Assembly (NCBI GenBank): GCA_951406725.2
Contig: OX597823.1
Location: 23,188,001-23,252,000, forward strand
DNA from: Octopus vulgaris
Taxonomy: Eukaryota
Length of the DNA: 64,000 bases
Reading direction: 5' to 3'
Of the stretch, positions 1 to 62,665 are shown one piece after another. The notes under the pieces were generated by a model. That model saw only the letters and a list, made by a program, of their open reading frames with translations. It had not been told where the DNA came from and made no database searches. A program made the position numbers and the translations under genes. How positions within the stretch are numbered: position 1 is the first letter of the stretch; each line of letters begins with the position of its first letter.

Positions 1-435
1 ATCCTGTCTTAAAGGTATTTGATGACCTCACCAGTGCTGGTGCCACACATACAAGCACCTAGCTAACTTTTAAGTGGCTGTCATTAGGAAGGGCATCCAG
101 CTATAAAAAAGAGCATGCCACAGTAGACACTGGAGCTCAGTGCAGTCCTCTGGCCCATCAGTTCATGTTGAACCATACAACCCAAAACAACATGGAGTAT
201 ACAGTTCAACATGAACCCGACATCTATTACTGAAGAGATGGGACATGTTGAAATCACGTGATCATGCAGTTCCAGCATCCATAGCTGGGGATTCTTATCT
301 GCCAGTACCATGCATGTGCTTATATGCACATTGCATCCACAGGAGGTCTTCGAGTTAGATAAAATGGAGTATTTGGCACTAACAATATCCACAATAAGTT
401 GGAAATAGATTGCATTTTTATATATATATATATAG

Positions 436-466
<31 letters not shown>

Positions 467-772
467 AAGAGAGCAAGAGAGACACAGTGAATTAAGCAGA
501 CATGATGTAATAGTGAAACTGAAATGTCTGACAAAAGCAATTCTGCCATAGACAGCATCTATTTCTGTTTCTATCTACTTATAACACATGACAACCAAAG
601 CATCACAATTTAAACAGTGTGGTTCAAGAGCCACATATATAACTTTAACAGTGTCCAGAAATATTTTCTAGTGAATTATGATTGCATATTAAAATCATCT
701 TTTAAAAAAATTAAGACAAATGGCTATCACTAAGAACTTGTTACACACAACAAAGGTGACAAAAATACTTAC

Positions 773-790
773 TTCTCCACTTTCTTTGGC
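773..790 (-). CDS. Micro-exon gene, 18-nt exon: (A)PKKVE(K/N); gene continues beyond the window start. Probable ribosomal protein with a Lys/Ala-rich N-terminal extension (identity not determinable here)
   Basis: TCTTTTCTAG|GCCAAAGAAAGTGGAGAA|GTAAGT; phase 2-2. Joined peptide: MVAESKKGDKASKKAEATPKKAEAPKKVE. Confidence 0.75.
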
Positions 791-963
791 CTAGAAAAGA
801 AGAAAATATTTTGTTTAGTTACATGATATATTTACAAACATGGGATTATTGTTAATGTATTTCATGTATCGATATGAAACTTTTTATTACCAGTAATACT
901 TTATACTTTTAACTTTACTAAAGCCAATTTCCATTTACTCTTGCTGTTCTAATTGTCTTTTCC

Positions 964-1192
964 TTAACCCTTTCGTTACCAACCCGGCTGAAACCAGCTC
1001 TGGCTCTTTAGTATAAATGTCTTGTTTTCATAAGTTTTGAATTAAAATCTTCCACCAAATCTTAGTCACAATTTATGTTCTTAACACTAGCTGAATGATA
1101 ACTAAGTTATTTTACTAAATTCTTTGTTATATTTAAAATAATTGGAAGAAACACAGAGCATCTCAAAATAAATACAGTAACGAAAGGGTTAA
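964..1192 (+). mobile_element. piggyBac-type MITE
   Basis: TTAA-CCCTTTCGTTAC...GTAACGAAAGGG-TTAA; a reverse-oriented copy is at 59782-60000. Confidence 0.85.
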
Positions 1193-1246
1193 CAAGATTT
1201 TTTATATAATATCAATGTAGCAGTAGGACCAATATATAAAATATAA

Positions 1247-2708
1247 GGGGCTAAGGCAGTTTTGCACTTCTTGAAAAACACATTTAAAAAAAAAATTTTT
1301 CCCCGGATTCCTACATTTTAGATGTCAGAGATTTTTTGTTTCCTGTTTTAGATGACAGAGATTCCGAATATGCAAGAAACCACGTTTTCACAATTTTAAA
1401 TTCAATAAGCATATAGATATGTGTATGAAGATAGATAGATCTGTCTTCCTGGGGCTAAAAACAATAGTAGGACCACCACATTTAGTTGACAAATGTATTT
1501 TATGAATAAACGGACAAATGGAAGAAATTGGTCAAAAATAATATACGACCCTGGTTATGGTATGGAAGTGATAAATTCCAGACTACATCGTTCCCTAGGC
1601 CATGCCAACTAACATTATTTTCCCTGTATAAAAACTAAATCTACCGCAGCACTCAGTATTTTGATTCACAAACTTTGATCCCCCATTTTGTGTTTGTTTA
1701 CAATCTGCCTGAATTTGTTTCCGCATTGATCGCTTCAAACAATAACTTCCAGACCACATCGTTCCCTAGGCCATACTGACTAACATTAGTCTCCCTGTAT
1801 AAAAACTAAATCCACACCAGTACCCAGTATTTTGCTCCACAAATTTTCCAAACTTTGAACCCCCATTTTGTGTATCTGTGTAATTTGTTTCCGAAGTGAT
1901 CGCTTCAAACAAGCATACTGAAAAAAATAAAAGTCGAATGGTTTCACTCCCTAAGAAAGACCATAGATAAACTCTATCTCCTCAGAAAAATTGCTAATAA
2001 AAACATTTTTTAAAAGTTTTTACTTCATTCCGACGTAAAATCGTCTATGCTGTCGCTATTGCCACTTTGTTTCTTCGGAATCACCGCTTTCGGTTAACAG
2101 ATAAAAAATATCCTATTCATTATTGTACACCACATGCTTTTGTACCCCATTCATTCTTTTTCTCGATATCTTCCAATTTTCTGTTGAAAAAGCTTTAAAT
2201 TCAGAATCAATGCTTGATAACATGAAACTCCTATCCATTTTCAAAGTTGAAGAAAAATCGATGCCGAAAAAAATCTCCCAAAATTCACTGAGTTAAGATA
2301 TCAGTTCAAGCAATGTCGGATACTATAACCCAACTATTTACAAAGTGAAATCACATGTTTTAACGAATGTACCAACGAGATTTGGGTTCAAATTTACATT
2401 TAAATAACAATAGGTTCTCTCGGCCGGGTTGGTATTATGAACCAAAAATTTTTTCGGCCAGGTTAGTAACGAAAGGGTTAAGACAATCACAAGTAAAATG
2501 TTAATTCTTTTCACTTTAATGTTTTTGTCTGTACTTAAATTTAATTTGCATATGTTCTTTAATTCACTACACTATTATTAAAGCAAGCAAAATCAAAAAT
2601 TTAAATTGGTGGTAGGGGGAACTGTTTTTTTTTTTTGCCTGATCGTAATCTCTGACACATTTTTAAAAATGCATTTTTCAAGGAGAGGTGCTAAACTGCA
2701 TTAGCCTC
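1247..2708. mobile_element. Composite non-autonomous DNA transposon region
   Basis: Imperfect inverted ends (GGGGCTAAGGCAGTTTTGCAC.. / ..GTGCTAAACTGCATTAGCCTC), an internal ~170-bp direct repeat (1577-1912) and a piggyBac-like right end (GTAACGAAAGGGTTAA, ~2466-2481). A related end occurs at ~28995-29887. Confidence 0.5.
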
Positions 2709-2757
2709 AAATATAATATTATTTAACAATATCTTATAACAAAAAATAGATACTTAC

Positions 2758-2778
2758 GCTTCAGCCTTTTTTGGAGTC
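2758..2778 (-). CDS. Micro-exon gene, 21-nt exon (duplicate of 3407-3427): (A)TPKKAE(A)
   Basis: TTTTTCAG|GACTCCAAAAAAGGCTGAAGC|GTAAGT; phase 2-2; flanking intron is near-identical to that of the 3407 exon. Confidence 0.8.
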
Positions 2779-3247
2779 CTGAAAAAATAAAATGAATAAA
2801 ATGATTTATGTAAATGAACATGTCAATTTTTTACAAAATTACATTTCTTAATGAAAAAGACTAAGCTATGCTGCCATCATATCACAGCAGTATTATAAAA
2901 GGTGAACTGTTTTAGTTATAGTTATTCAAAGCTACATGTCAGTGGCAAAGATATGTGTGTGTATAAATTACGCATGCGTGTGTATATATACACATATATA
3001 TACACACACACACACACACAGATATATATTTATACTCTTTATCTTATATTAAACTTTTTAATACTTTTTGATAGTTATATTTATTAAAAAAATAAAATAA
3101 AATAAAATAAATATAAAAATTCATAAGTATAAATTAATTAACAAAATTTTTTAAATTTTAACTTTAAATTTAAATAATTTAAATTTTATTTCTATGTATT
3201 GGTTTATGCTTTTCACTGTTTGATTTGCCTAATAGTGGTTTTATCTC

Positions 3248-3286
<39 letters not shown>

Positions 3287-3406
3287 CCGTCCAACCCGTG
3301 CTAGCGCGGAAAACGGACGTTAAACGATGATGATGATATACATTTACACTAGCCTCAAATATAATATTATCTAACAATGTCTTATGAACACAAAATAGAT
3401 ACTTAC

Positions 3407-3427
3407 GCTTCAGCCTTTTTTGAAGCC
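3407..3427 (-). CDS. Micro-exon gene, 21-nt exon: (K)ASKKAE(A)
   Basis: TTTTTCAG|GGCTTCAAAAAAGGCTGAAGC|GTAAGT; phase 2-2. Confidence 0.8.
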
Positions 3428-3600
3428 CTGAAAAAATAAAATGCATAAAATGAGTAATGTAAATGAACATGTCAATTTTTTACAAAATTACATTTCTTAC
3501 TGAAAAAGACTGAGCTATGCTGCCATCATATCACAGCAGTATTATAAAAGGTGAACTGTTTTTGTTATAGTTATTCAAAGCTACATGTCAGTGGCAAAGA

Positions 3601-3656
<56 letters not shown>

Positions 3657-3678
3657 TTTACACTTTTTGTTTTTCATT

Positions 3679-3872
3679 TCATGTTAGCAGTATTGGACAG
3701 GGACCTATTTTGAGGGAGCAATTAACAGATGTTGTCAAAACAAACCTATTCTTCAAATGGGATAATTCTATTCCACTAGTCTTTCTAAACACAGAGCAAC
3801 AAGTAGTAATGTCAGTTGTGGAAATTAACATCAGAATTGCACTCAACTGGTGACAAACCAAGCCACAGAATA
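3679..3872 (-). ncRNA. Weaker candidate intronic H/ACA-like RNA
   Basis: Non-repetitive, less AT-rich island in the host intron with stems CAGUUG/CAACUG and UAGUGG/CUGCUA, an ANANNA box (AGACUA) and terminal ACA-UGA. Target not established. Confidence 0.3.
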
Positions 3873-4801
3873 TGAACATTTACATGCATATTATAATGTG
3901 CTTTTTATAGTTCCCACATACCAAATTCACTCACAAGGAATTGATCAACCCAGGGTTTATTGTATAAGAAACTTGCCCAAGAGTCACACAGTGGGACTGA
4001 ATCCAAAACAAACTTCCACTGAACACAACCACATGAAAATGAACTCTTCTGTCAAGTTAAAACATTGCCTCACATTCTACATTAAATTTTCATTACTATA
4101 TTTCTACTGAAATGATACAAATTGTGTGCTTTTATAAATTCTGAAAATAATTGCAACTTTTACATAATCTGGCAATATTTTCACTAAGTTCATTCTGTTT
4201 CTTTATCTAGGTTGGTGTCAGAAGTTATCAAAAACACAATATAATTTCCAAATCAGTACCTGGAGCCTTGTGCAATTATTAATCAACAAAACAATGCCTG
4301 TTGCAACAGAAATTACAGGGCATTGAGAATTCCCAAGCATACGCTATTTACTATGGAATTTTTTCAATGAGAGAAAAAATGTTATTTCAAGCCAACTTCA
4401 GTCTTTTAATTCCATTAATTCATCATTTGAATGTGCCTTTAAAACCAGATATTATAATCCACTTTTCTTTTTGATAACTACTACAGCATCCTGGTTTACT
4501 AAGAAATTAAATTACAACAAATGTATAAATATATGTCAAAGGGTAGAACTCTTGAAAAACATCTATCAAATTTACATGGTATTTGTGATTTCATGTCACA
4601 TGAAGAATACATTTTTATTTAGCCTCAACTGCAGCCCTGAAATAAACTTATGACCTCTCTAACAGTTGTCTTATTCTTTATCAAATCGAAGCCCACAAAG
4701 ACTTTTTAGGTATATGAGGATATAGCTATGATTATTCAATCACAGCCATTCATAGTCAACAGCATTGTCAATATTTTTTTTCAAATTGTATGACATTATC
4801 C

Positions 4802-5180
4802 ATTATCATCATCGCTTAACGTCCGCTTCCTATGCTAGCATGGGTTGGACGATTTGACTGAGGACTGGCAAACCAGGCTCCTATCTGATCTGGCAGGTTT
4901 TTACAGCTGAATACCTTTCCTAACACCAACCATTTCAAGAGTGTAGTGGGTGCTTTTACATGCCACTGGCAACGGCCATGCTCAAATGGTGTTTTTTTTT
5001 TTTACGTGCCACCTGCACAGGAGCCAGTCCAGTGGTACTGGCAACAATCTCGCTCAAAGCCAGTGTCGCAGGACTGGCTCATGTGCAAGTGGCACGTAAA
5101 AAACCACCATTTGAGCATGGCCGTTGCCAGTACCGCCTGTCTGGCCCTCGTGCCAGTGGCACGTAAAAGCACCCACAACA
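4802..5180 (-). mobile_element. RTE 3'-end / (GAT)n-tailed retroposon copy
   Basis: Same 3'UTR family as 9952-10400. Further copies at ~1-190, 3283-3335, 12001-12290, 20990-21510 and 54480-55018. Confidence 0.8.
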
Positions 5181-5321
5181 CTGAACTTGGCTACTATTCC
5201 TAGTAGGACAAGTACAACCACCTACGACAAGTTACACATTTATATGAAAGCAACGTTTCTTTTAACTATTTTATAAGGAGAACAATTCACTATGTTGAAG
5301 AAAGATAGCAAAAATACTTAC

Positions 5322-5339
5322 TTATCGCCTTTCTTCGAC
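5322..5339 (-). CDS. Micro-exon gene, 18-nt exon: (E)SKKGD(K)
   Basis: TTCTTCAG|GTCGAAGAAAGGCGATAA|GTAAGT; phase 2-2, in frame with flanking exons. Confidence 0.8.
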   Translation of the reverse strand, partial: VEERR

Positions 5340-5405
5340 CTGAAGAAGAAAAATGATTATTCATCAGTTATATGAAAGTAATAGAAAAAATTGGAAAACT
5401 GGGCT

Positions 5406-5507
5406 CAACTTTTTTATCAATTGTTATAGATCATCAAAGGGCACATACAGAAAGAGCAACTTTTTTATCAATTGTTATAGATCATCAAAGGGCACATACA
5501 GAAAGAG
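5406..5507. repeat. 51-bp perfect tandem duplication
   Basis: CAACTTTTTTATCAATTGTTATAGATCATCAAAGGGCACATACAGAAAGAG present twice. Confidence 0.9.
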
Positions 5508-5529
5508 CAACCTTTTTTGCATTGCAGGT

Positions 5530-6050
5530 AATAATGTACTTCAATCAGAAACAACATGCCATGATTGAGTTCTTGACAAAAGAGGGGTGTTTGTTGACTG
5601 TGACATCTACAAAAAGTTACAGATTATTTACAAAAACACCATTGACAAGAACAATGTGTACAGATGGATGAAAAATGTAACCACTAACACAAATCGCTAA
5701 CAAGTGGGAGGATTCAATTAGACATACGAGTGGCAATCTCTGAGTTTGCTGCACAACCAGACTGTGGTCACAATGCATTACAAAAGATAGGAGTCTGGGG
5801 AATCACATTAACACTTGATTTGAAGGAAAGAAGGATGGTTTGCTCTGATGCAAGCGTTTGAAGATTATGAAAATATTTTTCCCAATTTAGTGACAAGGGA
5901 TGAAATATAGCCATATTTCATGATCCAGAACTGAAGGCTCAGTTCATGGTATAGTGACAGTCCTTCTCCAAGACCTGAAACATTTAAGAACCAGCAACCA
6001 TCACAGAATGGGATGACAAGGGCCTCATTTTCCTCAACTTCAGTGAATTA
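5530..6050 (+). mobile_element. Highly degraded mariner transposase remnant
   Basis: Fragments QHAMIEFLTKEG (mariner N-terminus) and LVTRDEI..FHDPELKAQFM (cf. IVTGDETW..YDPE.K.QSM), with stops and frameshifts. Confidence 0.55.
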
Positions 6051-7214
6051 GGCTGGTCAATGGTCCTTCATTGAAATCCAACACCCTCCTCAAACTTCCA
6101 CCTATTTGATCTATTGATAGGCAGTCCCCAGGTTTACGAAATGACTGCAAAAGGTACATGAATGAGCAGCTCATTTTTTCAAAGACAATTCGAGTGTTAG
6201 GTCCAACAATAGTGCAGATGCATTGCCTGTGATAGAGGCTATGAGTAGTATCTTTGAATAGAAGAAGAGTTATTCTACTAATATGTGCAATTTGAATGAC
6301 CAACACCAATAAGTTGTCTTTTGTATTGTCTTTGTCAGAATCCAAGTGAAAACTTAAACAGGATATTAACAATATACGAATTTATTACACATACCGATAA
6401 AAGAGAAATAATTTAGTTGAAGTCAGACCAAACCAGAGGGAAAAAAATGTTCTAATCTATTAAGATTTTGTTTTTAGTGTTATTTTTTAAATTATAAATG
6501 ATCGGTTACTGCTATTTGCAGAGTTCAATAACACTGACGAATTCAAAATATAATGCTTTTAATCAAGTTACAAACGATTGATTTTGTTAGGGTAATGAGT
6601 ACATCTTAATATTAGCGACTAATTATCAATATCAGTCATTGATATTTACAAAGTTAAGAACCCCTATACGAAAACAAAAATCTCAATTCATATAATCTAA
6701 GGATGTTATATAATTCGCAGGAAAAAACAATTTCCATTAAAGGATTCAAACACCAAGCACTCCATAAGAGTACTAACGTACATTCGACACAACTCAACTA
6801 AGTCAATGAAACTGTTGAAGCAGGGCGCCAAGAATTTAAAGATTGATGTGTACAAAGTGATCAACCTCCTTGCATCTAGCTTCTAAAATCTAATTGTTGA
6901 ATGGCAAATTCTTCCCATCTTATAACCAATGGTGGCAAAGAATACGTACATTGGGTGTGCGTATTTTTTTTTTTTTTTTTTTACTTTCGCCAGTTTCAAC
7001 ACACAACACCGAAATAAAGTTTAACAGTTGCTCCATCACCAGTAACACTGAGCAGCGATAAATCATAAACATTTAAGGTATTTTATGTTCAGAATATTTA
7101 AGTCAAGTATACTTTCGTATGAAGGACATGTAAATCAATAATTCTGTTTGAAAATTAAGGTGTCGCCTTTAACCCCCGGGGCAGCCTGTGCAGAACAAAC
7201 ATTTCTGATTCAAC

Positions 7215-7380
7215 GAATGTGTCCAGGACAACCAATATTCCATATGCCCATCCCTTCAAAAACACTATGTGATTTGATGAAGGTGCCTACTATTTCTAGC
7301 AGTTCGAATGACCAGAGAGAGAAGACACGTTGATAGTTCCATCCCTTGAACAGAAACTTCTCTCGGAGTACAACAGCTAC
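7215..7380 (-). ncRNA. Candidate intronic H/ACA snoRNA (guide specificity like SNORA52/snR8)
   Basis: 5' hairpin has lower stem UAGCUGUU/AACUGCUA and upper stem GAGAGAAG/CUUCUCUC. The hinge is AGAAAUAGUA, followed by a second hairpin (CCUUCA/UGAAGG) and ACA 3 nt from the predicted end. Pocket strands CUC and GUCAUUCG pair around the conserved 28S sequence CGAAUGAU-U-A-GAG. Same strand as the host gene, in an intron. Confidence 0.55.
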
Positions 7381-7721
7381 ATGTCTATACATAGAGCCAC
7401 TAATGTCCATGACACGCATATACACTGAATATAAGATTTACAAAACTATTTTTATGTTATTAATCAATGACACTTTAAATGTTTTTAATAATCGTTAAAG
7501 AAATAACGCTTTTCTTATTTTTGCTCGAGCTTCTTTTGGATGTATTTCAGTGCCACATAAACATTATCCAGTAATTTTGATTCATTTGATTAAAATGTTT
7601 CATGTTATAGATTCCGCATGCAAGTATTTTTAAAATGTTGCCACAAAAAGATAAACTGATGCTGGGAAATTATACAAAGTTGATGTTATATATTTAATGT
7701 ATGAAGTTAAAATATACTCAC

Positions 7722-7732
7722 TCTGCAACCAT
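7722..7732 (-). CDS. Micro-exon gene, coding exon 1 (exon 7738-7722, ATG at 7732): M-V-A-(E)
   Basis: TTTTCAG acceptor ending 7739, exon GACATCATGGTTGCAGA, GTGAGT donor at 7721; ends in phase 2. Confidence 0.75.
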
Positions 7733-8108
7733 GATGTCCTGAAAATAGGGAAACAACACACAAAAAATAATTAGTATGCAAAATACATTAGATTTAGAAA
7801 TTTAAGTAAAAAAAAGAAGACAAGAAATAGCTGAACAAAATATAATTATTGCTTAAGAACACGTGTTAAATGATCGTATAAAAGAAATAACGAAAATAAC
7901 TCAGCCATGGAGTACGTTACCACGTTGTTGAACAGAATGTAGATTTTGAACGGTTAATCTATGATTTACAAAGGCATATAAATAATAATTACTATTAAAT
8001 TATATTAAATGAATATATACGATTCATTTGTTAATGTTTACGAAGAAAATTTACCTGTACAAATGCCGATGATAAAGGATTTAAAAGCGAGTAACAATAT
8101 ATACTTAC

Positions 8109-8191
8109 AATTTAGCTGACAAGTAACACTAAAAAGGAAGTCACGCAGAGAATTCTTCCTGAACAGCACGTCTGCGAAGAATACCGGAAGT
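8109..8191 (-). promoter_or_regulatory. Promoter and non-coding exon 1 of the minus-strand micro-exon gene (5'TOP/TCT-like start, ETS/GABP site)
   Basis: Minus strand reads GTGA-CTTCCTTTTT-AGTG (pyrimidine tract 8140-8131), then a GTAAGT donor at 8108. CCGGAAGT (ETS motif) lies at 8184-8191. This layout is typical of ribosomal-protein/TOP genes; the exact TSS is inferred. Confidence 0.6.
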
Positions 8192-8719
8192 TGATATTTT
8201 CTTCTTTAACATTTATTTCAGCAATAATCTTTTCAGTAGCAATGCTTTCTTGTATCGCTTGGTTTATTTATTTTTAAAATATTAATAAAATTATTTTGAA
8301 CAATTTCTAAAATTAAACTAAAACAATTTTTTTTTTAAATGTGGCTTAAAATTATCTCCCTTTGTCTCTTATTCTAATTCAAATTTCTATAATAGGCACA
8401 CTAGCTCATGAGAGCATGTGCTTGATCATATCAATCGGAATAACCTTACTACGGGATATGAGCTCCAAAAGTTTTTAAAAAGCGTAAATAAAGTGGCATT
8501 CCTTCGCATGTGTACCCCTCCCCACGATTTTTGTTGCCTCATAACTTCCAGAAAAATTTATATTTTTTAATAAAATTTCATCCAAATACGCTTCAGATGG
8601 TATAGATTCCGATTGTAACGGAATTTATTTCCGAGGATGGGGTGAGAAGTTTCGGGAAATTCATACGAGTTGGTTTTGTTTTCTCATAACTTTCAGAAAA
8701 TTTGGTGTTTTTTAATGAA

Positions 8720-9141
8720 ATTAAACGCATACCCTCCATCAGACACCTACCATATTCTGAGCGCCTTGTTTCCCTGGGCATGGATTCACTGAAGCTCCGG
8801 CGTCTGGCAACGGACTTGGTAAACACCCACAAAGTTATCAACCACCTCACCAACAACAACACTGAACACCTTTTTGATCTCCATGTGTCTAACACACGTG
8901 GACATGCCTACAAAGTCAGAAAACAACACAGCTCCCATGACTTTCGGAAACATTTTTTCACGCTCAGAGTTGCTGAAGCATGGAATAAACTGCCTGCGTC
9001 AGTTGTTGACTGCCATGACACTGCATCCTTTAAGGCCCTCATGCTTTCCGAAATCCGCCGAAACTACACCTGATTATATATACACTTTAGATGAGTTGTA
9101 GTGCACCTGAGCACTGTACACAATTATTATTATTATTATTA
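8720..9141 (+). mobile_element. 5'-truncated CR1-group LINE 3' end
   Basis: ORF2 C-terminus YSERLVSLGMDSLKLRRL..DL..TRGHAYK..FRKHFFTLRVAEAWNKLP, then GTGCACCTGAGCACTGTA and an (ATT)n tail. The same 3' end recurs at ~47480-47690 and ~56435-56465. Confidence 0.85.
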
Positions 9142-9951
9142 TAAATACTTTTCACTGTATGTAGGTTACGATTATATTGGAATTAAATATGAAGACTCAC
9201 TTGTTGAAAAAAACATCATCTACATTCACATTAGCAGTTTAGAAAAGCCTGTAGATATTCTCTGAACACCATTTTTTTTCTCTTGCTCGCACTAAATAAT
9301 AGTACTAATAAGAATTTTTAACAAAAACAACAAAGCAATTGACCAAATACTTACCGTAAATTTTTCTTTTCACCCGCCCGATTTTCACTATGGAAAAAAA
9401 AAAACCTCGGATTTTATGCGTGGAATCAAGTACCCTAACTTCCTAATATGCTGCAAATCCATTAGTTTTGTTCGGAAAAAGGGGGAGGGGCGACCGAAAC
9501 CTCCCCCTCCCCCATATCCGGGAATCATTGGAAATTTTTTTTCTTTTCGTTGAATGAATTCCGGTGACCTCCTAATACGCTACAAAACCCTTTTTGGGGT
9601 CCGGAAAACGCGATGGAGGGGGGGTGGAACTCGGAAATTTGACCACCACCCCCGTTTTCAAATATTTTTTGCTCTTTCTTTTTTTACCCGTAATTTTAGA
9701 TAACATTTTGCAGAAATACGTTTTCGAGAGAGTGTGGTTTACATTAGATTGAAAACTCAAGAAGTTTGAAATGAATATGTGAAAATGCAAAAATTATAGA
9801 AGATAGTGGTAACGAAGTGTGTGGAGAGATAACGAACGATAAATTCATATAAAAAAAAAAACACGTTAGTTTTGCATATATGTGTGAAGCGAAGTAAAAG
9901 TATATTAAAACAAAAATATCTTTTTCCTTCCTTTTAAAATCATTGGATATA

Positions 9952-12000
9952 ATCATCATCATCATCATCGTTTAGCGTCCGTTTTCCATGCTAGCATGGG
10001 TTGGACGGATCGACCGGGGTCTGGGAAGCCAGGAGGCTGCACCAGGCTCCAGTCTGATCTGGCAGTGTTTCTACAGCTGGATGCCCTTCCTAACGCCAAC
10101 CACTCCGTGAGTGTAGTGGGTGCTTTTTACGGCCACGATCGGTTGGTGCTTTTTACATGTCACCGGCACGGAAGCCAGTCAAGGCAGCGCTGGCATCGAC
10201 CACGTACAGATGGTGCCTTTTACGTGCCACTGGCACAGGTGCCAGGGGAGGCTGGCAACGACCATGATCGGTTGGTGCTTTTTACATGGCACCGGCACAG
10301 AAGCCAGTCAAGGCAGTGCTGGCATCGACCATGTACGGCTTGTGCATTTTACGTGCCACCGGCACAGGTATCACAGCTACAATTTCCATTTGATTTTTTG
10401 ATGTTGATGTACTTGACTCAATTGGTCTCCTCAAGCACAGCAGGTCGCCCCTACGATCCAAGGTAAGTACGGCAGGCTGTCCTGCGATCCAAGGCACTTT
10501 GGAAGGGCTGGGGCTTCTATGTGAAGCTGGTGCAGGAAACAGCCAGAGGTCTCAATCATTCATCATTGCCCCTGTGAGACCCAACTTTCGAAGGTCATGC
10601 TTGACCACCTCATCCCATGTCTTCCTGGGTCTACCTCTACCCCGGATTCCTTCAACTGTTTAGGAGTGGCACTTCTTCATACATCTCTCCTCATCCATCC
10701 ATAGTACATGACCATACCAGCGCAGACGTCTCTCTTGCATGCCACATCCAATCCTTCTTATGTCCAGCATTTCTCTCAGGACACTTACACTCTGTCGTGT
10801 GTGCACACTGACATTACACATCCAGTGGATCATGCTAGCTTCATTTCTTTCAAGCCTACACATGTCCTCTGCAGTCCCAGCCCATGTTTCACTACCGTGA
10901 AGCATGGCATTTCGCACACATGCATCGTACAATCTACCTTTCACTCTGAGTGAGAGACCCTTTGTCACCAGTAGGGGTAGGAGCTTTCTAAACTTTGCCC
11001 AGGCTATTCTTATTCTAGTGGTAACACTCTCTGAGCATCCACCCCCACTACTAACTTGGTCACCTAGCCGAAACTATCAATTACTTCTAGTTTCTTCCCC
11101 AGGAATGTAATGGAATCTGTTTTCTGAGTATTAATGGTGTCTATTGCCCCTGTGCATCTGCCGCACACGAAAGCTATCTTCTTGGTTAATTTTCCTTTGA
11201 TGGTGCTGCACCTCTTATGTGTCCATAGCTTACACTGAGTACATCTTATGGAGTTTCTACCTACATGAAGGGATGTGTGGTGTGTTTGCCTTCCTACTTA
11301 CTAGAACTTTAGTCTTTGCTACATTGACTCTAAGGCCTTTTGATTCTAAACCTAGCTTCCACACCTGAAATTTCTTTTCTAGTTCTGGTAGTGGTTCTGC
11401 TATGAGGGTCAGGTCATCAGCATAGAGGAGTTCCCAGGGGCAACCCATCATGAATTCCCCTGTTATTGCCTAGAGGACTATGATGAATAAAAGGGGACTG
11501 AGGGCTGAACCTTGGTGGACCCCTACTTCTACCCGGAATTCTTCACTATACTCATTGCCAATCCTAACCTTGCTGGCGGCCTCTCTGTATAGGGCTTGTA
11601 CAGCCCTTATTAACCATTTGTCAATCTCGCAGTTTCCGCATCGCCCACCAGATAAGGGATCAGGGAATCCTGTCAAAGGCTTTCTCCAAGTCCACAGAAG
11701 CTATGTAGAGGGGTTTATCTTTAGCTAGGTATTTCTCCTGCAGTTGTCGAACCAGGAATATGGCATCAGTGGTGCTTCTACCCGGCACAAAACCAAACTG
11801 TAGCTAATCTAAGCAAGCTCTCTCCCTAATGAGATGGGCTATGACCCTCTCTGTGACCTTCATCACCTGATCCAACAGTTTAATACCCCTGTAGTTATTT
11901 CTATCTAGAGCATCACCTTTACCCTTGTAGCAGTTGACTATGGTGCTGCTACGCCAGTCATTGGGTTTGACTCTATTATGAACTACCTGGTTTACAATAC
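9952..12000 (-). mobile_element. 5'-truncated RTE-clade LINE (RT fragments plus 3'UTR and (GAT)n tail)
   Basis: Motifs VGVHQGSALSPLLFIIVL, LLYADDL, GLRVNVAKTK, LHGSETW and RRLRWYGHV, with frameshifts. The 3'UTR has a ~60-bp minisatellite and ends GACGCTAAACGATGATGAT. Confidence 0.9.
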
Positions 12001-38365: not shown

Positions 38366-39650
38366 TCAGGTCATTAAGAAGGAAATGTTCGATTTTCTTA
38401 TGCACCAACTTTGACAGTCATTAATTCTAATGTTTTATCCTGACAATTCTTTATTTTTTCAACTTTGAAGAGTTACATCATCACTTTTTGAAATGCAATT
38501 CATGGTGTCTGATTATATTGTGAGTTTTCTCTTGCAAATCAATTTTTATGAACCAATAGATAGATAAAAAAATTGTGTTGTTTATGAATATGAGTTCTGT
38601 CATGGAACCAATGCATTCCAGACAGCTCAAAACATCAACGAGGTGTTTGGTGAAGATGTGGCAAATGAGTGCATTGTATGTTGTTGGTTTGAGAAATTCC
38701 AGTCTGGTAACGTTACTCTTGAAAATCAGCCCCATTGTAGACATGAGCCCAAGGTGGATAATGATGAGCTAGAAACTGTAGTGGAAACAGATACATTTCA
38801 AACTATGCGTGAGTTAGCAGCAATGTTTGATGTTTAAATTCCAACTGTATTGGACCATATGAAACAAATTGGCAAGGTAAAGAAGCTGCACAAGTGGATA
38901 CCACATGAACGGAATGTGTCTCAAATGATATGTTGTCTTGAAATTTGCTGTTCTTTGCTGTTACAGCGTAAAAGCAAACCATTTTTGCATCGTATTGTTA
39001 TGTGTGATGAAAAATGGATTCTTTTCAACAATTGCAAGTGTTCTGCATGGTGGTTGAATAGAGACAAAGTGCCAAAACACAATCCAAAAAAGAATATTCA
39101 GCACAAAAAGCTAATGGTGTCTGTTTGGTGGTCCAGCACTGGTGTCATCCACTACAGCTTCATGAGACCTGATGAGTCAATTGCAGCAGATGTATGCATC
39201 AACCAATTGGATGAATTGATGAGTGAACTTGCAATTAAACGGCCGAAATTGGTCAACAGAGACATGCCAATTCTCTTGTAAGACAATGCTCAACCACATG
39301 TTGCACAAAGAATGCTACTCAAGTTACTGGAACTGAACTTGGAAGTACTCTGTCATCCACCATATTCACCAGACCTTGCACCAACTGACTATCATGTTTT
39401 CCAGGCATTAGACAACTTATGGCAAGGAAAAAAAAACATCAGATCTGAAGAAGATGCAAAAACAGGCGTTTGTGATTTCATCACCTCTTGCTTTCCAGAA
39501 TTCTTCACTGCCAGTATAAGCTACCAATAAAATGGCAAAATTGTGTTGATAATTTAGGTGTATATTTTGATCAACTGCATTGCCTTTTGTTGAGATAAAG
39601 TATAATAAACTTTCAGTTCAAGATCAGACATTTCATTCTTAATGACCTGA
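38366..39650 (+). mobile_element. Full-length (1285 bp) mariner transposon with disrupted transposase
   Basis: TA-TCAGGTCATTAAGAA..TTCTTAATGACCTGA-TA; motifs WIPHE, CDEKW, (Q)DNA and HPPYSPDLAPTDY (DD34D); several stops and frameshifts. Confidence 0.93.
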
Positions 39651-43913: not shown

Positions 43914-45601
43914 ACTTTATTTCATAAAAATTGGCTACAAGAGCCTTACAAAGAAGTAGCTGTGGGCTGGACAAAAACACAAATGACAATGAATGAAAAT
44001 GAAAAGATGATTGGAGGGGGAAGGCAGACAATGCCCACCGATTGCAGCTTCCCAAAAACATTGTTCTCTTTTTTATTTTTATAGAAATAAGCACAAAATG
44101 AGGTATTGAACCTCTTACAATTATTTAACCATGGACACAATATGCTCACAAAAATGAGGCGCTAAGCCTCTTACCTTTTGTCCAATAAAGTTTCAACTCG
44201 AGGCACTAAAGCTCCTGCTCCTCTTCCTGACTAGGCTATTTGCCTCCTTGAAGCACTTTGATGGTGTTATGTTGCACTTTAGAGCAAATCTATTAGTGTC
44301 CTTGTGGAATGAGTCCAAAGTTCTGCATAGATCACTTTCCCATATGACCTCCACAGCTACCTGTGTAGGCCAATTGGGGTCCTCCATGCAGTCCAGAACC
44401 CCTTCCCTTTGGCATTTTCTTTCCAACTTCTTAATGAAGTTCTGTACAGCCCCTCCCTTGTGAAAGAAGACCACATATTCCAACTCCAACTCCATGGGAG
44501 TGGTCATAGTTTCCTCCGTCGGTGGCACAATTTCCACTGACGGGGTTTCGGGACATGCTGGCAGTGTACCACTAACTGCCGGCAAAGTCCCATTCTTTTT
44601 TTGCTTTTTCTTCCCTTGTGCTACGGAAGGGTGAAGTTCTTCCGTTTTATCCGGAGGATCTTCCCTCCCTCCTGCAGCCTTCGGTGGGCCACCATTGTTG
44701 CCCACTTTCTTCCTCTTACGGCCTTTTTTTGAGGAGGTTTCCACCTCCCTGACTGTTTCTATCTCCCCCTCTGACTGGGGAGGGGTAGATTCCTTTGTCA
44801 CCAACTGTTCCAGGACCTTGTTCTGGTCCTGGGGACAGTTTTTTTTAATATAGCCTGGTTCCAGGCACAGGTGACACACCGTTGCGTATTTAACACCCCT
44901 GGAAATAAACTTAATAGTTGGCAGATGCTCTGCCAACTCTTTCTTAATATCTATTTTCGGAAAGACAGTGAAGGTGTCGAGTGATTTTGAATAAGTCCTC
45001 AACACCACTCTGTCCTTTCCCCTAAATCTTTTAACCACTGTTTGGGTGGGACAATCTCCCACTCCAAAACTGTGACCAATTTTTTTGCCATGTTAAAGAA
45101 AGTTCAAGAAAGAAATAAAAAAAGTTCAAACAAAAAAGTCAAAAAAAGTTTGAAGAAAGAAAAGTGGAGTAAGAAAGAAGGAAGACAGTTCCAAAAAACA
45201 CAGCAAAACACAATTCTGGCTAACCAGTACTCCTGGCCAAAGATACTCCAACAACAACAGGGACACAGCAGCAGGAACACAGCTCCACAAATTGGTTAAA
45301 AAATTTAACAAATTTCTTTTTTAAAAAAATTCTACAATTTTTGGAGGCGGGATGCACCCCCAAAACAACACAGTTCTCACACTTAAGTGAGACAGCACAA
45401 CTATAGGCAGACAAATACCTGGAATTCTGTAGGGATTTCTTGTTCTAACAAAATAGACAACAAACCCCCACTGAATCCCCAAAAAACAAATTCTTACCTT
45501 ATAGCTGCACCTTCACAGTTCTACACTTCAAGACCACTGCATAGCAACGTCTTGACCACATTCAGTGTAAAAACAACACTGAGTCACACATGCAAGCTTG
45601 C
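43914..45601 (-). mobile_element. ORF1-only (gag-like zinc knuckle) retroelement
   Basis: 289-aa ORF at 45062-44193 with CHLCLEPGYIKKNC (CX2CX4[H>Y]X4C) and a K/E/P-rich linker. No ORF2 before AATAAA at ~43921-43916. CTTACCT flanks both ends (43907-43913, 45602-45608). Confidence 0.65.
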
Positions 45602-55285: not shown

Positions 55286-55773
55286 GACATACATATATAT
55301 ATATATTGTATGTATGTACATACACAGATCTAATTATATATTATCGGATGGATAACATTTGTAATATAAATTATATAAGACATATATTTATTGTCATCAT
55401 TATCATCATACTTGTGTCTTTCTGTGGTGGCATGTGTTGGACAGATCTGCTCCAACTGGGCATCTTGTCACATGTTGCAGTCACTTATCATCCCCCTGGT
55501 CAGTTTTAGCATTCTAAGATCATCTTTCATTACCCCTTCCCATGTCATCCTCAATCTTTGTCTTCTACGGACATCTACTTGAATTATTTTGGCCCCTTTT
55601 CACCCAACTGTCATGTTTCACATGTATATACCTGTGCAGCCTTCTCTCTTGCACAACACAACTGATTCCTCTAAATATAGAAATATATTTGTCTCTTTCA
55701 GGTGTCTTAGAGTTTGTTGAACTTTTTTCTGAAGAATAACTGCAAGGAAACAGAAAGAAAGAAATTAACCAAA

Positions 55774-56007
55774 ATGTTTGAAGACTGGGATTGGAATGAG
55801 ATGGTAGGGAGATTGATCAGGTGGGCTGCAACAAGCCCATGGGAATTCATCTACTACGTGCTCTTGTGTTTGTCTCCGTTTTTCTTTGTCAGTGCCATCT
55901 TGGCATGGCAGCTTGCCAAACAAATAGAACACAAGGAAAAGAGAAAGAAGAAGACAAATAAAAAAGAGTCTAATGTTGCAAAGACTCGACGACAAAAAGC
56001 TGACTGA
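55774..56007 (+). CDS. SMIM15: Small integral membrane protein 15 (UPF0542), 77 aa
   Basis: MFEDWDWNEMVGRLIRWAATSPWEFIYYVLLCLSPFFFVSAILAWQLAKQIEHKEKRKKKTNKKESNVAKTRRQKAD matches the family pattern WAAxxPxxF...L(S/T)PxFxxSAxLxWxLAKxIE plus a basic coiled coil. The acceptor CTCTTTCAG at 55701 implies upstream 5'UTR exon(s). Confidence 0.93.
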   Translation: MFEDWDWNEMVGRLIRWAATSPWEFIYYVLLCLSPFFFVSAILAWQLAKQIEHKEKRKKKTNKKESNVAKTRRQKAD

Positions 56008-60372: not shown

Positions 60373-62665
60373 CACTGGTCAACAAAATTAAATGTATTAT
60401 ACTCATTATAAATGCAAACCAACTTTTTTAGACTAATTTTTCATGTTGATTTCAAAATTTCACTCCATTTGTTTGTAGCACATATCAGTTTTTCAGTAGA
60501 TACATGAAAATATTTACATATTTGTATATATGAAATCATTAACATAATAAATAAGGACATATTATTTTTAGAAAGCAAATGAGTTTATTGAGTTAAAAAT
60601 CATCAAATACCATTCTACAAAAAGTGAATATGCAAAAAATGGGTCTGACAAAACAGACAAAGTTAGAATAACAGGATTAGAAAAACATTGTGATCTGGAT
60701 TTCCTGCAGTGTTCCTGATCTGGTTGATCATAGTAAAGTGTCCAGCAAAAGTCAGCCAGCTTACTGTCATTCCAGATGCCTTGGTACCATTTCTCCATAA
60801 CACTAATGTCCTGGTGAAATATTTCCCCATATTCATCAAACACTGCTCCAATGTTAGCAGCGAAGAAATCCAGATGGAAGTCCAAGAAGTAAACTTTCAG
60901 GGACATGCGACAACCCATTGCTGAGTAACATTTCAGAAGATTCTTGATGCTATCCTTGTAGCCCATTCCTTCTTGTTGCCCAAGAAATTCGCACAGATCC
61001 AATTGAAAGCATTCCAGGCAGGCAGTTCCAGTTCATCCAGTGTTGTCTTGAAGTTGACATCATGGAGTACTTCTCTAATTTGGAGTCCAACAAAGATACC
61101 TTCTTTCAACTTCGCCTGTGTGATTTTGGGAAACTTTTCTACAATATACTCAAACCCTCTGGGATTTCTCTTCTCTAGTGTCTTTACAAACAGTTTCTTC
61201 AGTCCAAGATTTATGTGCAAAGGAGGCAATAGGACATTACATGGATCCACAAGAGGTGTATTCTTGACGCTAGACAGTCCTGGCTGGTATGTTGTTCTTG
61301 TCTGCTAGCTTGATTCTGAATAATGTCTGTCAGTTGCTCAACTATCCCATAGACACAAGAAATAACAGTTTTTTATGAAACCTGACTGCATTCCCATTAA
61401 CATTCCAATGACTTAAATCTCCACATATTTTCCATGAGTATCTTTCAGAGGCAATGACGTGAAGTAAAAGTTCCATATTCTCAGGATTCAAAGTGTGCAA
61501 AGGGAATGGAAGGCTTCAAATTAATATTATGGAGAAGTACAGCTTTTAAACTTTGTTTTGAAGAGTCAATGAACAAATGCCACTCTGCAGGATCATGATT
61601 TTGTGATAAACATTCGAAAAGTCTATCGATGTTACTGCAAAAGCAAAGTGGCCCTTCAACAGAAAAACATTTCTCTGCTGAAAATAAGTTATATGAACAC
61701 TGTGCTCTAGCAGATACTTCTTTAGTCTTGCTGCCAACAGTTCTGCTTTATCTTTTGAGAGGGATAGGTCTCTGACAAGGTAGTTCAGTTCAGCTTGGGA
61801 AAATTTCTGAGGTTCAAAGCTGTTGTCATCAGCCATATAATCTTCCTTTGCAGCACTATCGTGACAGCATCATCATCTGGTGGAACTGGAATTGGCAGAC
61901 TTCCATTGTGAGGTCTCATTGCAGAAACCCAATTTGGATACACAATTTTTTGTATTTATTCCTCATAGAAAATCCTGTAGCATTTACTTTGCAAAAATAA
62001 CAGTCATTAAAATGGTCTTTTGGCTCCCTCCATATCATTGGAATGGCAAAATGCATGGACTTCTTATTGAACCAGTCATGTAAGCCATTTGAGCAAGCTG
62101 AGCAGATAAAATGTGGTGCCCATAAATTGTCCTGATCTCCAAGAAGATAGTCAAAGTATAGCTTATAAATCTTCTTGTTATTGTACGTTTTTGAGCTTTG
62201 ACAATAAATTGTCCACAGACAATAAAACACATCAGGACGATTTCTACACTGTCTTCCCATTGTTAACACTGCAAAACAAGTAAGGAAATCGATACAAACA
62301 GTTATACTGAATTTGAGATGATGAGATATTTCATCAGACCAAATATGACTAGACAATTTGAGATGTTGAAATACCTATTTCATCAGACAAAACAGGGTTA
62401 GTTAATTTAAGATGATGAAATATTGCATCTGAACAATGCAACAATGAATAATGTAATTTATTTTAAAGGTATGTTTCCATATGAAATACATGCCTATGCA
62501 TTAATTGTAATTTCTATATAATGCATGAGCTAAAACCATAAAACTTTCACATCTTGAAAACTGTACGTGATATCAAAAAACTAATTGCATATTTGAAATC
62601 AGCATTAAAAACTACACTAAGTACATGTTGATATATGCTTGATAAAAAATACTTGTTGACCAGTG
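60373..62665 (-). mobile_element. Full-length Chapaev3 (CMC superfamily) DNA transposon, degraded transposase
   Basis: TIR CACTGGTCAACAA / TTGTTGACCAGTG with TAA TSD. Motifs LGDQDNLWAPHFIC, PMIWREPKDHFNDCYFC, LVRDLSLSK, LFIDSS, LPPLHINLGL, KLKEGIFVG and HLDFF..GE.FHQDI..E..YQG.W....LADFCW. Confidence 0.92.

Follow-up and report, generated by a model that had tools for sequence, protein, structure and literature searches.

The 64,000-nt stretch of the Octopus vulgaris genome considered here (the window; G000:C10:23188001-23252000) contains on its minus strand the 5′ portion of a gene in which very short exons each encode one small unit of a lysine-rich N-terminal tail. Joining these exons to those lying beyond the window gives a spliced model of 336 amino acids (aa) that is letter-for-letter equal to the public protein P0125 (Octopus vulgaris ribosomal L7-like, in the NCBI naming), and that scores above the cut-off for both Pfam domains of the family, Ribosomal_L30_N (PF08079) and Ribosomal_L30 (PF00327), with 82.4 and 61.4 bits. 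The gene is octopus RPL7, which encodes ribosomal protein uL30. A preliminary description of this stretch, made from its letters, had proposed a ribosomal protein under four possible names, of which uL30/RPL7 proved to be the right one; the core-domain match rules out the other three (eL6, uL23 and eL22). The protein read from the joined exons continues into the uL30 core, a translation-related domain, and the same match rules out a muscle or histone protein. A protein search of the assembly with RPL7 returned five matches, all of them exons of this one locus, which as a count of loci is a lower bound, and the search found no RPL7 retrocopies recording old splice forms. The array-bearing gene is the main RPL7 copy, single in this assembly, and is neither a pseudogene nor a paralogue. 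Its product also matches chain 9eho_F of an octopus ribosome structure in the PDB (E 1.9e-212), the deposited sequence of which is a 343-aa form. That chain carries the 343-aa "isoform X1", matching an O. sinensis record; the animals of the ribosome preprint (PMC13321053) were O. bimaculoides, the tail of which differs.

The coding sequence begins in a 17-nt exon (7722..7738, minus strand, as are all exons described here) that consists of 6 nt of untranslated region followed by 11 coding nt from the ATG at 7732, and that ends in phase 2. It is followed by m1 (5322..5339, 18 nt, SKKGD), m2 (3407..3427, 21 nt, ASKKAE), m3 (2758..2778, 21 nt, TPKKAE) and m4 (773..790, 18 nt, PKKVE), each of them phase 2-2, and each of these five exons has a pyrimidine tract with a YAG acceptor and a GT(A/G)AGT donor. 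The five coding exons with strong splice sites of the preliminary description are all present, with the correction that coding sequence makes up just 11 nt of the 17-nt start exon. The five-exon array is real but incomplete: downstream of m4, an intron (1..772) runs out of the window toward nine more micro-exons and the five exons of the uL30 core (G000:C10:23187693 down to ~23171720). On the same contig, m5 (23187693-670) and m6 (23184536-513) are 24 nt long, and m7 (23184016-3996), m8 (23182976-956), m9 (23182456-436), m10 (23181367-347), m11 (23180537-517), m12 (23178525-505) and m13 (23177073-053) are 21 nt long. The core exons, which lie 3′ of m13, measure 103, 167, 138 and 110 nt, with the last exon starting from 23171928. 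The array proper comprises 13 internal micro-exons of 18-24 nt, all 13 in phase 2-2 and flanked by near-consensus splice sites, in which 273 coding nt are spread over 16.3 kb. The description of one xKKx(D/E) unit per phase 2-2 exon fits the four internal exons in the window, but the motif drifts in later units (for example VAKKPA, VTRKTR and AGKEAG). A nested in-frame acceptor within m11 (G000:C10:23180528-23180517) would yield a 12-nt exon, and is a further possible length variant.

Because the spliced model is identical to P0125, all 13 micro-exons are already present in the public annotation, contrary to the earlier expectation that gene predictors would miss them; their joint presence in one public model would imply that they have transcript support. 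The exon calls were also compared with chance expectation by means of a strict micro-exon scan of the 18,801-nt region, the criteria for which were fixed after the exons had been seen. On the sense strand the scan returned 13 matches, corresponding to 12 of the 13 exons and one nested 12-nt acceptor (the remaining exon was sub-threshold), and all 13 matches are symmetric, open and lysine-coding. The antisense strand of the same region gave no match under the same scan. In 200 dinucleotide shuffles, the mean was 0.56 matches with a maximum of 3, and the symmetric, open and lysine-coding class had a mean of 0.05 and a maximum of 2; 138 kb of flanking DNA, scanned on both strands, contained seven matches, one of them in this class. 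The window portion alone yields four matches, against a shuffle mean of 0.2 and a maximum of 2. Since the thresholds were chosen with the exons in view, we place more weight on the identity of the spliced model to P0125, which is a stronger check than a post hoc scan.

The 13 micro-exons encode 91 residues. The stretch ahead of the conserved core motif is 99 residues long, of which 8 are left without the array; the array constitutes the whole of the N-terminal extension. The exon structure was read in the O. vulgaris genome, and other species were compared as proteins. Among 24 bivalve and gastropod uL30 records, hand-picked from named search matches, 21 have 6-10 residues before the core motif; the other three, counted as misses, have 12, 15 and 60, and the 60-residue N-terminus is not basic and resembles annotation from an upstream start. 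Five records from brachiopods, nemerteans and annelids have 8-9 residues in this position. Insect uL30 has 23-40 residues before the core in 8/8 records, apparently the result of a separate expansion. The O. bimaculoides tail is at least 89 residues long, and its second half has basic pairs that are mostly spaced by 7 residues; the Argonauta tail is 44 residues long. Two marine proteins, P0127 and P0234, bear Lys/Ala/Pro-rich tails of 58 and 104 residues; they are sister to the octopods in our tree (100/99) and have cores nearly identical to each other, so that tail length, as judged from this pair, varies widely in their lineage too. These comparisons suggest that the tail is likely to be a trait of cephalopods and that its length varies strongly among them.

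Self-comparison of the locus points to the manner in which the array was built. A segment containing m2 and its flanking introns (3347-3656) matches one containing m3 (2699-3012) with 90.8% identity over 315 nt; m5 and m6 are likewise related together with their introns (87.8% over 1044 nt), and m9, m10 and m11 are 75-85% identical with introns included. Weaker links were detected among m7, m12 and m13, and between m1 and m4. By this comparison, the homology of the flanking introns shows that the exons were duplicated in tandem, m3 being the tandem duplicate of m2. Within four recent exon pairs, 10 internal codons have changed, 9 of them non-synonymously. Exon identity equals flank identity in m2/m3 and m5/m6 and is higher, not significantly, in m9/m10; for m9/m11, exon identity is 13/21 versus 138/157 in the flanks (Fisher p=0.005, one of 9 tests). 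Between O. vulgaris and O. bimaculoides, 52 of the 72 aligned tail residues are identical, compared with 236/240 in the core. Judged from these alignments, the tail changes fast between octopods: its frame, splice sites and basic composition are preserved, but its exact sequence is not. The m3-m4 intron also contains a repeat element (1522-2434), an 82-87% identical copy of which lies in the m11-m12 intron.

When the uL23, eL22 and eL6 loci of the same genome were scanned (~30 kb each), a micro-exon array was found in 0/3, and the array is therefore gene-specific among the four ribosomal-protein genes examined. Loci for eL14 and for the L7Ae family were located in the assembly but lie outside this set of four. 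A processed and broken uL23/RPL23a copy (L026, G000:C3:169583150-169583520), which maps across four exons of the gene on C6, was noted in the course of this comparison.

Upstream of the start exon lies a non-coding first exon (8109..8140, minus strand), with an approximate 5′ end, a donor after 8109 and no upstream ATG. Both promoter elements of the preliminary description are present in the sequence: a TCT/5′ terminal oligopyrimidine (TOP)-like tract, CTTCCTTTTT, at 8140-8131 on the minus strand, and an ETS/GABP-type motif, CCGGAAGT, at 8184-8191 on the plus strand, ~45 nt upstream of the likely start, with a putative role in transcription of the gene. An ETS motif combined with a pyrimidine-tract start is the familiar promoter architecture of ribosomal-protein genes, and RPL7 transcription likely starts within the 8131..8140 tract. 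The same tract also looks like a splice acceptor. The only candidate for an exon further upstream, of 33 nt (9387-9355), was rejected because it lies in a dispersed repeat. This repeat (9290-9700, 66 matches at ~80% identity among those listed) is situated just upstream of the RPL7 promoter, and the 33-nt pseudo-exon that it bears looks perfect.

The intronic small nucleolar RNAs (snoRNAs) that had been proposed for this gene found no support. Rfam scans of the window at gathering score gave no match, scans by E-value gave only microsatellite-driven microRNA matches and chance-level snoRNA matches, and no RUGAUGA..CUGA pair of the C/D-box type occurs in the window introns, although such searches do not exclude novel snoRNAs. 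In the intron after the second core exon, a 79-nt C/D-box-like segment (L003:8097-8175, minus strand; GUGAUGA ... CUGA) has no significant Rfam match and might be an unannotated snoRNA. Elsewhere in the window, a single-exon open reading frame (55711-56007, plus strand) matches Pfam UPF0542 with 96 bits, which we take to be the small membrane protein family SMIM15. Transposon remnants occur at 38838-39281 and 8690-9073 on the plus strand and at 10660-11073, 44193-45092 and 60568-62374 on the minus strand; one of these is a mariner-type DDE fragment (PF01359), and the remainder resemble pieces of retrotransposons or DNA transposons and have no Pfam match.

The tail is strongly basic. Over 95 residues it contains 31 K, 21 A, 11 V, 8 P and 8 E, with K, A and P together contributing 60/95, and the net charge is approximately +25 over the 99 residues that precede the core motif. 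AlphaFold predicts residues 1-100 to be without secondary structure, with a predicted local distance difference test (pLDDT) score of 41-54. In solved ribosomes, uL30's eukaryote-specific N-terminus contacts expansion segment ES7L at the back of the large subunit, according to the sections of PMC10281867 available to us. Variation in the tail is indicated by the RefSeq set for O. sinensis, which consists of predicted models and holds seven isoform names for five distinct proteins (343, 336, 335, 328 and 322 aa). These proteins differ by whole units only: m2 occurs twice in 2/5, m6 is missing in 2/5, and m4 and m5 are missing together in 1/5, whereas m1, m3 and m7-m13 are found in 5/5. The claim that the tail can be shortened in frame is upheld both by these whole-unit differences and by the absence of a stop codon at all 105 possible junctions of the array. 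The isoform differences, read from protein models, support the in-frame skipping of units.

We therefore favor, with moderate confidence, an explanation in which octopus RPL7 carries a 91-residue lysine-rich tail produced by 13 symmetric, duplicated micro-exons that are mostly included, with some in-frame skipping, and that form a flexible arm facing ribosomal RNA (rRNA). The 13-unit array would likely have grown from one small phase-2 exon through successive tandem duplications, and its micro-exons are probably mostly included, with some of the 5′ units skipped in frame. As all the exons share one phase and have lengths divisible by three, the gain, loss or skipping of any unit would leave the essential core unbroken, and the array could in consequence expand and drift, with selection acting on its frame and basic composition, not on exact sequence. 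On the solvent side of 60S, at the place where the uL30 N-terminus meets ES7L, the product would form a disordered polycationic arm. This arm likely binds exposed rRNA electrostatically and tolerates changes in its length, much as the fly L23a extension is tolerated in yeast (PMC1934995). Three observations weigh against parts of this explanation. The divergence of m11 from m9 beyond that of their flanks could signify selection on sequence, not drift. The low pLDDT values may in part be those expected from a shallow and gappy alignment, in which 6/41 rows have a long tail. Finally, m5/m6 and m2/m3 each have their last 16 nt in common, and some of the apparent skips may be artefacts of mis-mapping or copy number.

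A first alternative, the one raised in the preliminary description, is that regulated micro-exon splicing tunes the length and charge of the tail by tissue or stage, thereby producing specialized ribosomes from one gene. Every micro-exon is skippable in frame, the isoform models vary at m2, m4, m5 and m6, and splicing is the sole route to variants of a single-copy gene. The neural microexon program (SRRM3/4, eMIC) acts on frame-preserving exons of 3-27 nt that carry a UGC enhancer shortly before the acceptor. The RPL7 micro-exons match this program in size and frame (18-24 nt, 13/13 symmetric), but UGC occurs at -18 to -22 in only 4/13 exons, with a fifth at -40, and is absent from the variable exons m4, m5 and m6; UGCAUG is found within 300 nt downstream of 0/13 exons. 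Precedents for such regulation come from the cell-type-regulated 3-, 18- and 22-nt exons of RPS24 (PMC8563012) and from yeast, in which N-terminal differences between the uL30 paralogues alter translation (bioRxiv 10.1101/2021.10.06.463374), both as described in the accessible portions of these reports. Nevertheless, near-consensus splice sites on all 13 exons are better suited to constitutive inclusion, the known isoforms span merely 37.0-39.3 kDa with hardly any shift in isoelectric point, and the rapid turnover of the tail between species speaks against a conserved program. We consider regulated splicing unlikely. Its most ambitious version, in which octopus tunes the rRNA-facing arm by combinatorial splicing of the 13-unit cassette to make tissue-specific (e.g., neural) ribosomes and thereby possibly contributes to slower translation, we regard as quite unlikely.

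A second alternative holds that the array is strictly constitutive, with the listed isoforms reflecting short reads mis-mapped among near-identical exons or alleles of differing copy number. The m6 skip could stem from mis-mapping, as m5 and m6 share their 16-nt 3′ ends; m2 and m3 likewise share theirs. The extra m2 of O. sinensis could reflect exon copy number, because the O. vulgaris assembly has one m2 and one m3 copy; isoforms X2 and X3 encode one protein, as do X6 and X7, which would be expected if O. sinensis had two copies of m2. The O. vulgaris record, moreover, contains all 13 exons. However, the 322-aa isoform has a junction between m3 and m6, and with only 1 nt in common between m4 and m6 at their 5′ ends, this junction appears harder to explain by mis-mapping; strict constitutivity seems to us distinctly improbable. 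A main role for the tail away from the ribosome, as a nucleic-acid-binding arm of the histone-H1 type that would serve in chromatin, in nuclear import or in the autoregulation of the gene's own pre-mRNA, is very improbable: despite a K/A/P/V-rich composition resembling that of the fly L22/L23a extensions that bind PARP (PMC1934995) and the autoregulated splicing of yeast RPL7B (PMC12311795), the tail has no Pfam linker-histone match, and ribosome chain 9eho_F was deposited with the long form as its sequence.

Ribosomal-protein genes are usually compact and conserved; octopus RPL7 spends 16.3 kb on 273 coding bases, with one tail unit per exon. Symmetric exon duplication offers a concrete route by which lineage-specific extensions of ribosomal proteins could grow, and because RPL7 is single-copy, this cephalopod gene could allow a clean test of whether splicing makes ribosomes heterogeneous. 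Octopus translation is ~30% slower, independently of the helix 88 (H88) break, and both a ribosome structure (9EHO) and an in vitro translation system exist (PMC13321053, in its accessible parts). The RPL7 tail is one testable candidate for this slower translation, with the caveat that the sister-group proteins P0127 and P0234 are also long-tailed. A description of a micro-exon-built cephalopod uL30 tail was not found in the literature searched, which lay outside subscription journals and preprint supplements. The available text and supplement of the 2026 octopus ribosome cryo-electron microscopy preprint (PMC13321053) contain no match for uL30, RPL7, extension or microexon, and the available main text of a 20-species splicing preprint that includes O. 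bimaculoides contains none for RPL7 or ribosom, although its supplements may list the RPL7 micro-exons. The architecture is apparently undescribed, although the protein is already annotated.

In its intact core and TOP-like start, the octopus gene resembles eukaryotic uL30/RPL7 genes in general, and its product matches the annotated O. vulgaris protein at 100% identity. Unlike the uL30 proteins of bivalves, gastropods, annelids and brachiopods, it has ~91 extra N-terminal residues, arranged as one unit of 6-8 residues per exon; its predicted mass is 37-39 kDa, compared with ~28-29 kDa for uL30 of snail and oyster. Series of short symmetric exons that permit combinatorial skipping in frame are found in the schistosome micro-exon genes (MEGs), which encode secreted proteins built mostly from micro-exons, and in the N-terminal variable region of troponin T. 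The octopus array resembles these cassettes in its exon logic; unlike a MEG, however, RPL7 encodes an essential cytosolic protein in which micro-exons supply 273 of 1008 coding nt (27%), and it falls outside that class. A parallel in composition is provided by the H1-like extensions of insect eL22 and uL23 (PMC1934995, as far as its accessible text extends), which are lineage-specific, Lys/Ala/Pro-rich N-terminal tails on core ribosomal proteins that are tolerated by the ribosome, and the octopus tail is likewise of low complexity and rich in these residues (60/95 K/A/P). The comparison with insects is one of tail composition, since the protein is a different one and the octopus tail is an array of symmetric micro-exons. 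Vertebrate RPS24, also a core ribosomal protein, has a terminal tail that very short exons modify (PMC8563012 and PMC11703226), but these are three C-terminal exons of 3, 18 and 22 nt under cell-type regulation, in contrast to the 13 duplicated N-terminal exons of octopus RPL7.

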